DNA of 64,000 bases, taken from a virus (lineage: Duplodnaviria > Heunggongvirae > Uroviricota > Caudoviricetes). Positions 9,839 to 14,984 of this stretch are shown piece by piece. The translations under genes and the position numbers were made by a program. The notes beneath the pieces were generated by a model. That model did no database searches. It was not told where the DNA came from and saw only the letters and a list, made by a program, of their open reading frames with translations. The stretch spans positions 1-64,000 of the IMG/VR virus record IMGVR_UViG_2802429224_000004, one strand, 5' to 3'. The stretch's first letter is position 1. The number at the start of each line of letters is the position of its first letter.

Positions 9839-10093
9839 TTATCGCCTTCGCCTGCGTGCCATATATTTGCGCACCGCGCGGCGTGGACAATCTGAAGCGG
9901 TTTCTTTCTGCTGCATCAATCTTGCAGCCATGCTCAAAAATGTCAGGCACAGCCGAAGCCCAGCATACAATAGCGGTTCCAGTGGCCACGTCTCATTGAG
10001 CACATATACCGCCATGAAAATCGAGTCGAAAACTATCGCCGCCAGCGATAACTTCATTGTCGAAAGTCGGCGGAGCTGCCGGAGTTTATTCAT
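9839..10093 (-). CDS. small two-TM membrane protein with poly-Arg C-terminus (holin/pinholin-like)
   Basis: 84-aa ORF overlapping lyz stop by 8 nt; two hydrophobic helices and RKYMARRRRR tail; likely start at internal Met (10057). Confidence 0.35.
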   Translation of the reverse strand: MNKLRQLRRLSTMKLSLAAIVFDSIFMAVYVLNETWPLEPLLYAGLRLCLTFLSMAARLMQQKETASDCPRRAVRKYMARRRRR

Positions 10094-10643
10094 TGACCAG
10101 TCCCGTCAGGCAAAGCTGGCGTTCTTTTTCACGGCGAATCTTTAAACCTCGCAGGGGCACGCCGTTACTGTTCACGAAATCAGGGAGATGGTTACACATA
10201 TTCACCCATTCCCCTTTCTGCGCCCACTTGTGGATGGACGTTTCTACTCGCATGCCTCGCGCTTTGCTGTAGTAGGTTCGTAAGCTATTGCATCCCATAT
10301 TGAATGCCGCGCTTGTCATTGCACTGAAGGCATTATCGGGCATGTCTTTGCCCCGGAAGTGCTGATTAATACAGCGTTCAGCGATCAGGATATTCTTTTC
10401 CCAATCAGCGGCGATTTGCTGGTCTGTTTTTCGCACACCCGGCGTTACCCCGTGTGTATTACCGATCCCGTCAGTCCATACCCCTGCCGGGCACATGTAT
10501 GGATCACGTCGGCAACCTTCAGCGTTTCCGATAAGCTCAAGCCCCGCCTGGTTGGTTCGCACATTGCCATTACCCATCACGATGGTAATCATCACCGCGA
10601 TAGCGCAAATTGCACCGCCTCCTGCGGCTGTTTTTCCCTTCAT
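10086..10643 (-). CDS. lyz: SAR endolysin (T4-lysozyme family) Lyz
   Basis: 185-aa product from Met at 10643; N-terminal Gly/Ala-rich SAR helix MKGKTAAGGGAICAIAVMITIVMG followed by lysozyme catalytic region (E..D..T); matches remembered P1 Lyz. Confidence 0.85.
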   Translation of the reverse strand: MKGKTAAGGGAICAIAVMITIVMGNGNVRTNQAGLELIGNAEGCRRDPYMCPAGVWTDGIGNTHGVTPGVRKTDQQIAADWEKNILIAERCINQHFRGKDMPDNAFSAMTSAAFNMGCNSLRTYYSKARGMRVETSIHKWAQKGEWVNMCNHLPDFVNSNGVPLRGLKIRREKERQLCLTGLVNE

Positions 10644-10776
10644 AAAGACCTCATAAGCGAATTTTTTACGCTCCAGGACAAACACCCATTCACAGCCAAT
10701 ACCGACTGACTCGATCCCTTTAGAAGGCACAGGATAATGCAAATCACTTGTTAGCTACGTTTCAAAGATATACATT

Positions 10777-10793
10777 ATTGCTCTAATTAATTT
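10777..10793. promoter_or_regulatory. C1 repressor operator-like 17-mer upstream of ssb
   Basis: ATTGCTCTAATTAATTT, 16/17 match to remembered P1 C1 operator consensus ATTGCTCTAATAAATTT. Confidence 0.5.
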
Positions 10794-10812
10794 ATTTTAT
10801 TAGGTAAGATAA

Positions 10813-11301
10813 GTGGCACAACGCGGTGTAAACAAAGTCATCCTGATTGGTACCCTGGGGCAAGCCCCGGAGATCAGGTATATACCAAATGGCGGAGCGG
10901 TCGGAAGACTCAGCATCGCAACGAATGAATCATGGCGCGACAAGCAAACGGGCCAACAGAAAGAGCAAACAGAATGGCATAAAGTCGTTTTGTTCGGAAA
11001 ACTTGCTGAAATTGCGAGTGAATATTTACGAAAAGGTTCTCAGGTCTACATCGAAGGGAAACTTAAAACCCGTAAGTGGACAGATGACGCCGGTGTAGAA
11101 CGTTACACGACGGAAATTATCGTCAGCCAGGGCGGCACCATGCAAATGATCGGCGCTCGCCGTGACGATTCACAGTCCTCAAATGGCTGGGGGCAATCAA
11201 ACCAACCTCAAAACCACCAGCAATACAGTGGTGGCGGTAAACCTCAGAGCAACGCCAATAACGAACCTCCAATGGACTTTGACGACGATATTCCGTTTTG
11301 A
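10813..11301 (+). CDS. ssb: single-stranded DNA-binding protein
   Basis: 162 aa, GTG start; OB-fold N-terminus highly similar to E. coli SSB, Gly/Gln-rich linker, acidic tail DFDDDIPF. Confidence 0.9.
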
Positions 11302-11498
11302 ATGTGTAAAAAACGACTGAAAGAAAAGCGGTGGTCCAGACGCCGACAAAAGTACGAACTCGCAAACAAACGCCAAAGTTGGCAATGGCACGCGCTTTTC
11401 ACGAAAAGAACACCCCGAGATATTGCTTTCGCTGGTGGGAAAACATTCCTGACCCACCTGAAGGCGCAAGACATCAGGTTTTAAGCAGAGGAAAGACT

Positions 11499-12176
11499 AT
11501 GAATAACATGACAACGAAAGAGCTTTTGACGGCACTTCCAAAATACAAAAGCCATAAAACAGTTCGCGCCTCAAAAATCAAAGATATCGAAATTATCGCC
11601 CTAATGGATGTGGTCCTTTTTTGCAACATCGAAGTCGTTGAGCCAGAAGGGGTAAAAGTCCATGTTGATAAAATGTTTTTGCAAAAACACCGACCAGAAA
11701 TTGGCGGATATCTGGTCGCTTATGAGAACGGATCTCTGTCCTATTCACCAGAAAAAACATTTGAAGAAGGCTTTAGTCGGACTAACGACTTCTTCGAAAA
11801 TGGGGTATCGCTCAGTATTGAAGGTCACAATGGGGTGACATTCATTACAGCCAGGGACGTAACTATTTCTGCTGGCGGTATCGCTACTCTACAAGAAGAA
11901 ATCGACCTTGAAGCAGCCGACTTTTCTGACGCGCTGATGTGGCTGAAGGATGGCAAGAAAGTTGCTCGACGCGGGTGGAACGGCGAAAACCAATTCTGCT
12001 GGCTGGTTCCTGAAGGACAGTACCCGGCACGAATGGAAGCCATTAAGGGATATTTCCCCGGCGACCTCGTTCCGTATGGTGCTTATTTCGCCTTAAAAAA
12101 TGCACAAGGTGTAGTTGTTCCGTGGGTTCCTTCTGTAGGCGACTTACTGGCATGTGACTGGTTTGTAGTGGAGTGA
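11499..12176 (+). CDS. DUF2829 (Tad2-like) domain protein with unknown N-terminal domain
   Basis: ATG at 11499 with gagg RBS; C-terminal ~85 aa carry the DUF2829 signature (ALMWLKDGKKVARRGWNGENQF ... VVPWVPSVGDLLACDWFVVE). Confidence 0.5.
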   Translation: MNNMTTKELLTALPKYKSHKTVRASKIKDIEIIALMDVVLFCNIEVVEPEGVKVHVDKMFLQKHRPEIGGYLVAYENGSLSYSPEKTFEEGFSRTNDFFENGVSLSIEGHNGVTFITARDVTISAGGIATLQEEIDLEAADFSDALMWLKDGKKVARRGWNGENQFCWLVPEGQYPARMEAIKGYFPGDLVPYGAYFALKNAQGVVVPWVPSVGDLLACDWFVVE

Positions 12177-12182
12177 TTTAAC

Positions 12183-12965
12183 GTGGAAAATACTAAAGCA
12201 ATTCAATACCGCCTGCGTAATGGTCAGAGTGTCGAAGTGACCATCAATAATGATGGTGTGCCTGGCGAAAAGGTTTCGATCTCTGATCTGGCTATCGAAA
12301 AAACCATCATGTGCCACCTTGGCTTTACTGAAGAAGTGAGCAAAAAGCATGGTGTAGCAATCTGGAGCGCAATGGATACTGGTATGCGCAAATTCATTAC
12401 TGCTCGTACCCCAGGGATGACCATGATGGACCTCATGCAGATTGCGCCGCTGTTTGAATGTGAGCCTTTAGATGTATTCAGCAATCCAGCTATCTGCCAG
12501 CAGTTATATGGTGAGATGAAACTCGCGGTTACCCCCATTGTGCTGCATGAAGGATCGCTTGCTGGCGTGTGGAAAGTGGAGCGTATTTCAAGCTACATGC
12601 CTTTCCATGTCAACGGCGTAATCACTGGTGAAAATCAACCTGTTTCCGTTATAAAGTCAGACCTCAAGCGCGCAATTCTTGAAGCAAGTTGTCGAGTTGT
12701 CGGCCTGGGCAAACAGTCTTATGTTTCCTTCCCGGCTGGCCCTGAAGGCCCGGCAGAAATTCTGATTATGGATGCCGATCTGCTCTGGCAAATACAGTTT
12801 CTGATTGGCAAAAGCATCATCCGCGCTGAAGAACTCGATCAGTACATTACCTGCACGATGACGGATGAAGTCAAAAGTGTGGCTATAGCCAATGCCCGGA
12901 ACCTATGTCGTGCTGCATTAACAGAACTGCAAGAAAACACCACGGAAGAAGTGGAAAGCGATTAA
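12183..12965 (+). CDS. hypothetical protein
   Basis: 260-aa ORF, GTG start 7 nt after upstream stop (operon with DUF2829 gene), followed by terminator; no motif recognised. Confidence 0.4.
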   Translation: MENTKAIQYRLRNGQSVEVTINNDGVPGEKVSISDLAIEKTIMCHLGFTEEVSKKHGVAIWSAMDTGMRKFITARTPGMTMMDLMQIAPLFECEPLDVFSNPAICQQLYGEMKLAVTPIVLHEGSLAGVWKVERISSYMPFHVNGVITGENQPVSVIKSDLKRAILEASCRVVGLGKQSYVSFPAGPEGPAEILIMDADLLWQIQFLIGKSIIRAEELDQYITCTMTDEVKSVAIANARNLCRAALTELQENTTEEVESD

Positions 12966-12996
12966 AAAAAATCCCGCCGATTGGCGGGATTTCTTC
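12964..12996. terminator. bidirectional rho-independent terminator
   Basis: A-run, hairpin atcccgccgattggcgggat, T-rich tail; between convergent operons. Confidence 0.55.
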
Positions 12997-13306
12997 AATA
13001 TACGATCTGGTCTACATGATCACCAAAATCATCGTCGTCGTCGTCCTCATCGCCACCATCTACTGCTGGCCAATCAACAAACCAGCCAGCGTAAAGATGC
13101 AGCGTTCGGAGAACATCACTTGCGGGAGCATCAAGGGTGTTAACGAATCCCATATAGCTATTGGGATTTGCCCCAGCTATGGCTTCAGCGATCATGTCCT
13201 CGGTAATGTCACCGGAGATAATGCTTAAACGCCCGGAAACTTCTTCATTATCATCAAATTCGATAATGGCATCTCCACCTAATGGCGCTGCGATTTTAAT
13301 CTGCAT
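12995..13306 (-). CDS. small highly acidic protein at distal end of Dar-type operon
   Basis: 103-aa ORF overlapping upstream stop by 11 nt; C-terminal DGGDEDDDDDDFGD run. Confidence 0.4.
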   Translation of the reverse strand: MQIKIAAPLGGDAIIEFDDNEEVSGRLSIISGDITEDMIAEAIAGANPNSYMGFVNTLDAPASDVLRTLHLYAGWFVDWPAVDGGDEDDDDDDFGDHVDQIVY

Positions 13307-14984
13307 TATTTAGCTCCTTTGCCACACCTAATAACAGTTCCAGCAATCCGTCACCATTCATCAGTGATGCGGCAGCGGCCTCTTTGTCATGATACAACTG
13401 AAGAGCCATAGAGAATACTTCCGTTGCTGACGTTTTGGAAATAGTCGGTGATTTCTGCCGAATTTTCCCGGTGTTACTTACTGAGGCTGGCGGGTATACC
13501 TTCGCCATATAAATATTACTCAATCGAGATCTGAAGCACCATTCAGGCTTGCCACGCCCACCGATATTGACGAAAGATGGCTTATCCCCTTCAACATTGG
13601 CCTTCAGGAATGACCGGGCTTTCTCTAACAAACCAGGGTTACTGTACTCAAGATGATGACCCAGCTCGTGCCACAGTGCACTTGCATTTTCATCGTTCAA
13701 ATTGACAGCAACAACACCATTAAGATTTGCATATGCCCTTCCCTGGTGGTGAACTACCTTTGATAAGGTCGATATTTTCCCGCCGGTCAGGCGATAAATA
13801 TCAGCAAGTTCCTTGCGCAGGTCTATCCCACCATTCTGTCCAGCGCGGACTTCTTCCACTTCTTCTGTGATAAAAGAGTCGGCCCACTCAAGAGCTTTTT
13901 CTTCAGATACGGATGAGTTTGCGATCGCACTGTTCATGGCAGATAACACTTTCTCGTGGACCGAACCCATACTTCGCTGATTCATTTGCCAGCGTATCTG
14001 CGGGTTATATGAGAATCGCTTAAGTAGTTGGTCAAGCTGCTCAAGTTCTTCTTCACTGACATACTTTTTAGCCTCACCAATAATGCCAGGGAGAATATTG
14101 CCGTTAGGATTAAACGCTCGCGAAAGGAAGAGTTTCAGCGCCCCCATGCCCTCCGATGCTTCAATATCACCAATAACCCGGTTAACAATGGCCGCACTCT
14201 TCGGATTAGCATCCGCCAACGCTCTGGCTACGATTTGCAGGGACGATACGACCTCACGCTGCATATCAGTCCTGATCTCATCAATAAACTCTGGCGTTAT
14301 GCCGTGCTCTTTTAGGATATCCCGGCCTTCCGCCGTTACCCCATCAATATCCCCGAGATGTTTATTAACCCGACTTTGCAATGCCTTAAATGCCTTCAGA
14401 ATTCCACGGGCATCATCCGCTTTACTAACGGCCTTCCTGAATGCTGGCAAGAAGTCTGAGTTAACCTCATTTTGTTGATCGGCCCACTGAATGGAGGCTT
14501 CTTTCATCTCGTCCAGAGTCAGATCACCCAACGCGGTATGGTCTGTGAATATGAGCGACAACCTCTGAACCATTTCTGCCAATGGTGATGCCGAATGCGC
14601 CGCGCTAAGGAATGCTTTCACCCTGGTTGGGCGAATGGAAAACCAGTCAATAGCTGGTGGCATATCTCCGTTTTTTATCGCCTGCGCTATCTCGTCAAAG
14701 CCATCGCGCCCAAGGGAGGATGCGTGATTTAACAAGCCGCGAAGTAACGAATTGCTGATACCGAATAATCGGCACCATTTTTTCACGTCGGCAACAGGCA
14801 TTCGAATAAAATGCGCAAGCACTTGTACAAGCTGTTCATCCTGGGGATCTGTACGGGAAAGCAGCCTGATCAGATGAATAATGTCTTTGATGCCGGATGC
14901 CCGATGTAATAACAAGCTGGTATATGGAGCAACACCGTTGTATCCGCTGCTGGTGGTCATAACTATCTGATCGTTTAAACTCAT
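13296..14984 (-). CDS. DdrB-like Dar operon protein with HExxH motif
   Basis: 562 aa; position after darA/ddrA-like genes; contains HELGHH (zinc-metallopeptidase-type HExxH). Confidence 0.45.
   Translation of the reverse strand: MSLNDQIVMTTSSGYNGVAPYTSLLLHRASGIKDIIHLIRLLSRTDPQDEQLVQVLAHFIRMPVADVKKWCRLFGISNSLLRGLLNHASSLGRDGFDEIAQAIKNGDMPPAIDWFSIRPTRVKAFLSAAHSASPLAEMVQRLSLIFTDHTALGDLTLDEMKEASIQWADQQNEVNSDFLPAFRKAVSKADDARGILKAFKALQSRVNKHLGDIDGVTAEGRDILKEHGITPEFIDEIRTDMQREVVSSLQIVARALADANPKSAAIVNRVIGDIEASEGMGALKLFLSRAFNPNGNILPGIIGEAKKYVSEEELEQLDQLLKRFSYNPQIRWQMNQRSMGSVHEKVLSAMNSAIANSSVSEEKALEWADSFITEEVEEVRAGQNGGIDLRKELADIYRLTGGKISTLSKVVHHQGRAYANLNGVVAVNLNDENASALWHELGHHLEYSNPGLLEKARSFLKANVEGDKPSFVNIGGRGKPEWCFRSRLSNIYMAKVYPPASVSNTGKIRQKSPTISKTSATEVFSMALQLYHDKEAAAASLMNGDGLLELLLGVAKELNNAD

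Follow-up and report, generated by a model that had tools for sequence, protein, structure and literature searches.

An OB-fold–Tad2 fusion gene at the isaA start codon of a P1-like phage-plasmid: a probable accessory anti-Thoeris sponge cassette

We analyzed a gene at positions 11499–12176 of a 64,000-nucleotide window (the whole stretch of DNA studied here), which is a P1-like (SJ46-type) phage-plasmid. The C-terminal domain of the gene product belongs to the Tad2 family by sequence and predicted fold, and it is preceded by an OB-fold domain similar to that of the phage decoration protein Dec. Taken as a whole, the gene is probably best explained as an accessory anti-Thoeris sponge cassette of P1-like phage-plasmids. 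Sequence comparison with P1 indicates that this cassette was inserted exactly at the start codon of isaA, and that the resident isaA was displaced downstream. Given that Tad2 has already been reported in P1 and D6 elements, the Tad2 assignment is ordinary, and what is new here is only the OB-fold fusion partner.

Results

Genomic context and transcription unit

Between 10700 and 13400, the window shares 99.3% identity with Salmonella phage SJ46 and, piecewise, about 96% identity with P1. The features of the transcription unit are given below, with promoter and operator coordinates carried over from P1 (window = L001 + 9199).

10748–10810, + strand: P2ssb and P1ssb promoters with the C1 repressor operator Ossb (about 10777–10793), from the P1 annotation
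10813–11301, + strand: ssb, encoding a single-stranded DNA-binding protein of the P1 type and opening the transcription unit (PF00436, E = 3.9e-39)
11302–11498, + strand: leader of 197 nt between ssb and the OB-Tad2 gene, near-identical in P1
11488–11492, + strand: Shine-Dalgarno sequence GAGGA, 6 nt before the ATG, read from the sequence
11499–12176, + strand: OB-fold–Tad2 fusion gene, 225 aa plus stop (PHROG 872 over the full length, E = 1.9e-59)
12183–12965, + strand: isaA homologue, 260 aa, GTG start (PHROG 2326, E = 2.3e-149)

As stated in the original prediction, the gene lies next to ssb, which is immediately upstream and is named as such at the corresponding gene in both the P1 and SJ46 annotations. 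Positions 10730–10830 have 100% identity to the annotated P1 region containing the ssb promoters and Ossb, and the leader aligns to P1 with 3–4 mismatches as far as ATG 11499. No terminator-like or promoter-like site was found on the + strand between ssb and the OB-Tad2 gene, the 197-nt leader matched no Rfam family, and a promoter scan of 10600–13400 returned no sigma-70-like site; given that the annotated P1 ssb promoters in this region were also missed, the scan was too strict to exclude an internal promoter. From this lack of predicted signals, ssb and the OB-Tad2 gene are most likely co-transcribed from the C1-repressed promoters. The expression regime of the OB-Tad2 gene would thus likely be early and C1-repressed, and early expression would suit a sponge needed before signals build up.

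On the minus strand, no ORF of more than 72 aa overlaps the OB-Tad2 gene. The GTG of the isaA homologue (MENTKAIQYRL...) begins 6 nt past its stop, and the isaA product had no match in Pfam or NCBIfam. Farther downstream, between the convergent isaA and hxr genes (12961–13094), sub-threshold Rfam matches to Trp, Leu, Thr, and rnk leaders (E 0.04–0.8) are probably due to a hairpin resembling a terminator rather than to a genuine leader. On the other side of the unit, the minus-strand endolysin ORF at 10086–10742 has 218 aa from a TTG, compared to 185 aa from MKGKTAAGGG annotated for P1 Lyz, and its extra N-terminal residues are probably untranslated.

Start codon and insertion at isaA

The longest frame of the + strand ORF ending at 12176 has 281 aa from GTG 11331, while ATG 11499 yields 225 aa; both strings quoted in the original prediction, ALMWLKDGKKVARRGWNG and VVPWVPSVGDLLACDWFVVE, are present in the 225-aa frame. 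GenBank uses the GTG in SJ46 and P1, treating 11331–11498 as coding for the N-terminal end of both P1 IsaA (320 aa) and the 281-aa SJ46 protein. We rejected this start in favor of ATG 11499 on four grounds. The ATG has a Shine-Dalgarno sequence; homologues in other genomic contexts start at the equivalent methionine; RefSeq/PGAP calls exactly the same 678-nt ORF, starting at 11499, in hundreds of plasmids; and, in the alignment with P1, isaA uses the same Shine-Dalgarno site (GAGAA) and the same ATG, the 168 nt upstream of it (11331–11498) being open in frame and shared with P1, where a different gene follows. Given that this segment is near-identical in P1 and the window yet precedes different genes, we regard an untranslated leader as most likely, and the GenBank starts of P1 IsaA and the 281-aa SJ46 protein are probably over-extended, with a spurious leader-encoded extension.

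P1 and the window are near-identical from ssb through the leader, ATG 11499 included. Past this ATG, P1 runs straight into isaA (MTAQNTKTIQYRL...), whereas the window runs into the OB-Tad2 gene, and the GenBank version of P1 IsaA corresponds to the leader plus a protein matching the 12183–12965 product of the window. This divergence exactly at the ATG therefore points to a precise cassette insertion that captured the isaA translation signals. A housekeeping P1 gene of unrelated function at this position, which would have contradicted the original prediction, was not found; P1 has only isaA there and lacks the OB-Tad2 gene.

Tad2 domain

The 225-aa protein is organized as follows.

11511–11786, + strand: Dec-like OB-fold domain, aa 5–96 (AlphaFold2 model and Dec profile match)
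11787–11909, + strand: linker, aa 97–137, short predicted beta-strands, pLDDT below 50 (AlphaFold2 model)
11910–12173, + strand: Tad2 (PF11195) domain, aa 138–225 (Pfam, PDB matches, and Foldseek)
11976–11978, + strand: codon of W160, predicted ligand-contact residue (alignment with SPO1 Tad2)

Pfam family PF11195 (Tad2-like, formerly DUF2829) matched residues 141–224 over profile positions 2–73 of 73, with a score of 80.2 bits against a cutoff of 25 bits and E = 1.6e-22, and is therefore far beyond chance. The C-terminal DUF2829 domain initially proposed is thus borne out, although the accession cited for it, PF10991, was wrong and PF11195 is correct. In a PDB sequence search, ModTad2 was the best match (9EIB/8V3E, E about 6e-20 to 6e-21), followed by AcrIIA7/HgmTad2 (E about 1e-9 to 1e-12); SPO1 Tad2 (E about 1e-9 to 7e-9) and SptTad2 also matched. 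We built an AlphaFold2 model of the full protein on 38 homologues, in which the Tad2 domain (138–225) had pLDDT values of about 80–94 (10-residue block means) and the elements H142–150, five or six strands, and H213–217. When this model was searched against the PDB with Foldseek, every solved Tad2 was returned with a probability of 1.00, and ModTad2 ranked first (target-normalized TM 0.80–0.89, 46% identity), consistent with the Tad2 fold originally anticipated.

In SPO1 Tad2, residues W25, N26, W73, S76, and D79 contact 1''-3' gcADPR, and these align with W160, N161, W209, S212, and D215 in a pocket comparison that covers the SPO1 contacts. All 38 homologues share W160, W209, and D215, and at least 90% of them share S212, while N161 is a lysine in one allele group. 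Secondary pocket positions differ from SPO1 Tad2, with T65 replaced by N201, D67 by Q203, H71 by V207, and T78 by G214.

Helix alpha1 of Tad2 participates in tetramerization, and in our protein a 137-aa N-terminal extension lies ahead of this helix. The extension need not block tetramer assembly, given that functional N-terminal fusions exist (Acb4-Tad2). Likewise, the protein exceeds the short stand-alone length of about 70–110 aa that is typical of Tad2 but not obligatory; since multi-domain Tad2 proteins are documented, 225 aa is not disqualifying.

N-terminal OB-fold domain and linker

The original prediction described an uncharacterized N-terminal domain of about 140 aa in an architecture that could not be assigned to a described protein. 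The extension exists, but it consists of a domain of about 95 aa and a low-confidence linker of about 40 aa. Its fold, though not its function, can be assigned, and the architecture turned out not to be a unique one, given its membership in PHROG 872, its presence in hundreds of P1-like plasmids, and its PGAP label as a DUF2829 protein. A model of the OB domain only had a pLDDT of 90.3 and a pTM of 0.81. A profile of the domain (alignment A3) matched the Dec OB-fold over its whole length (Dec residues 14–91, E = 3.3e-5), with the common motif PE(I/V)GGYL...G.L.Y.....FE, so that the domain resembles the Dec OB domain in both sequence and fold; past residue ~99, we found no similarity to Dec.

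We found no Pfam match for the N-terminal 140 aa even at E ≤ 10 (20 members), no name in NCBIfam or PHROG, and no match to Acb4 in the PDB. In BFVD, the domain matched only uncharacterized phage proteins and one MazG fusion. When the N-terminal 100 aa were used in a word-indexed search for homologues, nothing but fragments of this protein came back, whereas searching 1.84 billion representatives exhaustively with a profile revealed a family of 4902 clusters at 50% identity (E ≤ 1e-3; 2451 at E ≤ 1e-10), counts that are slightly inflated by spurious giant proteins. Members are often stand-alone phage proteins of 83–125 aa. The giant proteins (P0129, P0130, P0132, P0133, P0147, P0177, and P0189) are adhesin-like repeat proteins of 1.8–4.6 kaa that appeared at the top of the search. 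We rejected them as family members because only the half-motif 'DGSYSYTP..NF.G.D' matches, and they are not YD-repeat proteins either; the adhesin repeat 'DGSYSYTP..NF.G.D.F.Y' mimics the GGYLV.Y.DG..SYSP..FE..Y hairpin of the domain.

Fusions were classified in 143 newly returned representatives among the best 150 matches. The domain was alone in 107, 55 of which had at most 125 aa; it was fused to Sequestin in 12, to Tad2 in eight, and to both in three, and the remainder were tandem copies (six) and spurious giant proteins (seven). Among 47 longer proteins with this domain, two carried PF13876 (Acb4 family) and one an RyR domain. A published table of Sequestin homologues also contains fusions of this domain to Sequestin, a family that was itself discovered through fusion to known sponges. 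Being tied to all three small sponge families, the domain therefore represents a candidate anti-defense family, as was the case with Sequestin.

Known sponge families did not account for the domain. The pattern GGYLV.Y.DG...S.SP..FE..Y raised the suspicion of an Acb4 (PF13876) relative, and the 'TRGEYN' N-terminus in the Sequestin table had been taken for Acb4, but neither matched PF13876. Acb4 is described as three strands flanked by helices and not as an OB barrel, and the co-occurrence of both domains in single proteins indicates that they are distinct. Lockin was also rejected, given that it forms curved beta hexamers, is absent from sequenced INPHARED phages, and gave no PDB match. We found no description of the OB-fold partner in the literature.

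These results raise the question of whether the OB-fold domain, as an independent anti-defense module from a new family of sponges or signal binders, or as a nucleic-acid or nucleotide binder, is the main functional unit of a two-function fusion, in contrast to a passive add-on to Tad2. The family is very large and often stand-alone, 23 of the 143 representatives are fused to Tad2 and/or Sequestin and two of the 47 longer ones to PF13876, fusion to known sponges was the route by which Sequestin was discovered, and the OB fold is a classic ligand-binding fold. In addition, the many near-invariant polar and aromatic residues of the family (H, K, H, Y, D, Y, S, S, E, and Y) suggest a binding site. 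However, the only solved relative, Dec, binds capsid, the copy in the window carries N77, S79, and F92 at three sites where the family almost invariably has D, Y, and Y, respectively, and the domain could be a mere solubility, oligomerization, or localization module. We consider this reading possible but doubtful. By analogy with Sequestin, the OB domain might, tentatively, be an independent counter-defense module from a family whose members bind an immune signal or some other factor of the host; in that case, the P1-type protein could be a double inhibitor like Acb4-Tad2, a prospect we hold equally loosely.

Tested Tad2 relatives and expected ligand

The closest tested homologue of the Tad2 domain, with 68% identity over 82 aa, is Tad2_68, one of 18 Tad2 homologues of a systematic screen (10.1101/2025.08.24.671296). 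In Table S2 of that study, Tad2_68 was positive on type I (plaque assay) and type II Thoeris, and negative on type IV Thoeris, two CBASS systems, and two Pycsar systems (10.1101/2025.08.24.671296). [quoted passage not shown] Tad2 specificity varies widely among homologues, and, as the secondary pocket differs here, the ligand is not readable from sequence. The activities of ModTad2 and Tad2_68 therefore make sequestration of Thoeris signals, of type II and probably also type I, the best-supported prediction. The Tad2 domain in the window would thus, with good probability, act as a Thoeris-signal sponge, and its ligand is likely His-ADPR and/or 3'cADPR, by homology. Thoeris signals were also named in the original prediction, where their restriction to cyclic ADPR is too narrow, given the type II His-ADPR activity of the ModTad2/Tad2_68 clade and the additional type I activity of Tad2_68.

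Alternatively, the Tad2 domain could sponge CBASS cyclic dinucleotides or Pycsar cCMP/cUMP via the A–C interface pocket, which would render Thoeris secondary or irrelevant. Between them, Tad2 homologues act against CBASS, Pycsar, and three types of Thoeris, and the second pocket binds cUMP/cCMP in ModTad2 and cyclic dinucleotides in HgmTad2. Given that neither the two CBASS nor the two Pycsar systems were inhibited by Tad2_68, which was positive on type I and II Thoeris, and that the canonical residues of the ADPR-signal pocket are conserved, we regard this alternative as improbable. Even less probable is a virion-associated protein whose Dec-like OB-fold binds the capsid, as decoration or as carrier of the Tad2 domain. 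The gene lies in the early C1-controlled ssb unit and not among late or morphogenesis genes, surface decoration would stay outside the cell, the fusion partners of the OB domain are mostly small cytoplasmic sponges, and the family to which Dec belongs has thousands of members. Finally, an AcrIIA7-like anti-CRISPR acting on Cas9 is hardly credible: AcrIIA7 proteins are DUF2829/Tad2 family members that match at E about 1e-9 to 1e-11, but this match is weaker than that to ModTad2. Homologues of AcrIIA7 (HgmTad2; 8kbj, 8kbk) have isomers of cADPR as well as cyclic dinucleotides as ligands, and the authors who first described Tad2 hold that the family counters Thoeris rather than CRISPR, with no Cas9 binding shown. 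The E. coli and Salmonella hosts are not known to carry type II CRISPR-Cas.

Distribution, alleles, and exchange

The OB-Tad2 gene was detected in 213 of 5426 complete E. coli genomes, with 213 of its 220 places on plasmids, typically of ~90–100 kb among the records listed, and in 229 PLSDB plasmids. Since isaA was present in 378 of the complete E. coli genomes, the gene occurs in about 56% of P1-type elements. DefenseFinder was applied to 1592 P1/D6 phage-plasmids in a 2025 preprint, which reported 'Tad2 AcrIIA7 (anti-Thoeris)' in 56% of the P1 group and 93% of the D6 group. PGAP labels the product a DUF2829 domain-containing protein, and one UniRef relative is named Thoeris anti-defense Tad2 family protein.

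Close relatives of the Tad2 domain also sit behind other N-termini and before Sequestin, occurring as Tad2-Sequestin and OB-Tad2-Sequestin proteins (P0061, P0063, and P0134). The junction with other N-terminal modules is always at ...EIDL(E/D)AADFSDALMWLK, the end of the linker (...GGI(A/T)TxQEEIDLEAADFS). At the same place, D6-type elements encode a dUTPase and a short Tad2 protein, followed by a homologue of isaA. The IsaA-like product encoded after the Tad2 genes of these elements has 48% identity and its first 14 residues are identical, from which it seems that the Tad2 module recombines together with the 5' end of isaA. In phage D6 itself (L003, 2085–3034), the dUTPase gene lies directly upstream of the short Tad2 gene. 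Some elements (L004, 4001–4726) instead encode a 241-aa dUTPase-Tad2 fusion (P0056), the Tad2 domain of which is 98% identical to that in the window, and the isaA homologue with 48% identity comes after this fusion.

The Tad2-Sequestin protein P0061, encoded on a 90.7-kb contig (Logan SRR7894888; L006, 4001–4576), has a Tad2 domain with 85% identity to that in the window. Its gene adjoins genes for NinX, a RecA-dependent nuclease, and HigB/HTH; this non-P1 context indicates that the Tad2 domain moves between unrelated temperate elements. In a non-P1 element, the neighbor of a Tad2-Sequestin gene is unrelated to IsaA, so that the pairing of Tad2 with isaA is specific to P1/D6 elements.

Several Tad2 alleles were found behind the same OB domain. 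In the short-loop allele (P0021, P0028, P0031, P0033, P0039, P0046, and P0050–P0053; alignment A1), the beta2–beta3 loop is shortened, RREWKGEKQ replaces RRGWNGENQ, and N161 and G159 are changed to K and E, respectively. A long-loop allele, the third, has a loop 20 residues longer, and P0083 has a Tad2_71-like domain behind the OB domain. Tad2_71 itself is active against Thoeris types I, II, and IV. This variety suggests ligand-specificity switching at one locus, and the allele pattern is as expected of an arms-race gene.

Discussion

The gene that we characterized would fit the following scenario. An OB-Tad2 cassette inserted at the isaA start codon would have taken over the isaA ribosome-binding site, and its product would be made early after infection or induction and be silent in the lysogen. 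The Tad2 domain is expected to form the usual homotetramer, with inter-protomer pockets lined by W160, N161, W209, S212, and D215 that would bind ADP-ribose-derived signals of Thoeris TIR proteins, likely His-ADPR (type II) and probably 3'cADPR (1''-3' gcADPR, type I). By homology, this would keep the ThsA-type effector from ever being activated and allow the infection to go ahead. The Dec-like OB-fold on its flexible linker of ~40 aa would be an add-on, and our best guess is that it serves as a second binding module, as in Acb4-Tad2 and Tad2-Sequestin.

Pathogenic E. coli, Shigella, and Salmonella commonly harbor P1-like phage-plasmids, which also serve as standard vehicles of transduction. 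With the gene present in roughly half of these phage-plasmids and missing from laboratory P1, they offer a natural comparison for how Thoeris limits their spread. The Tad2 assignment adds little here, and the value of the analysis lies in the fusion partner. The OB-fold family, with thousands of short phage proteins and no Pfam entry, constitutes a concrete and cheap candidate anti-defense family that, if this reading is true, would join Tad1, Tad2, Acb2, Acb4, Sequestin, and Lockin.

Comparison with known systems

The P1 isaA locus (NC_005856) shares the ssb promoter/operator region, ssb, leader, ribosome-binding site, and ATG with the window. P1, however, lacks a Tad2 gene, its isaA begins directly at the ATG, and an IS1 is located downstream. 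Dec, the capsid-binding decoration protein of phage L (6E3C), is the only solved relative of the OB domain. Whereas in Dec this domain leads into a C-terminal trimeric spike and the protein binds capsids, the OB domain in the window is followed by an unrelated linker and the Tad2 domain, and its gene is in an early operon.

Among Tad2 proteins, Tad2_68 (IMG/VR UViG_3300014659_000001) has the same GWNG, YPARMEA-KG, and YFALKNAQG-VVPW-PS-GD-LA-DW motifs as the protein in the window. It is a stand-alone protein of 87 aa from a metagenomic virus, in contrast to the window protein with its 137 additional N-terminal residues (OB-fold and linker). ModTad2/MoTad2, from a Myroides odoratus prophage (9EIB, 8V3E), is the best solved match and has an equal beta2–beta3 loop length, but differs in being a stand-alone protein of 88 aa that binds cUMP/cCMP and does not block type I Thoeris. 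The founding member, SPO1 Tad2 (gp34.65; 8SME/8SMF/8SMG), shares the fold and the core contacts W25/N26/W73/S76/D79; this stand-alone protein of 89 aa binds 1''-3' gcADPR, has about 33–35% identity to the domain in the window, and differs by the replacement of T65, D67, H71, and T78.

The nearest parallels to the fusion are Acb4-Tad2 of Pasteurella phage Pm86, which blocks both Thoeris and CBASS, and Tad2-Sequestin (PF21825). In these known double sponges the partner belongs to a sponge family with demonstrated activity, whereas the partner in the window is an OB-fold with no PF13876 or PF21825 match. The architecture is nonetheless shared: in each, a linker connects a Tad2 domain with a second small phage domain within one polypeptide.
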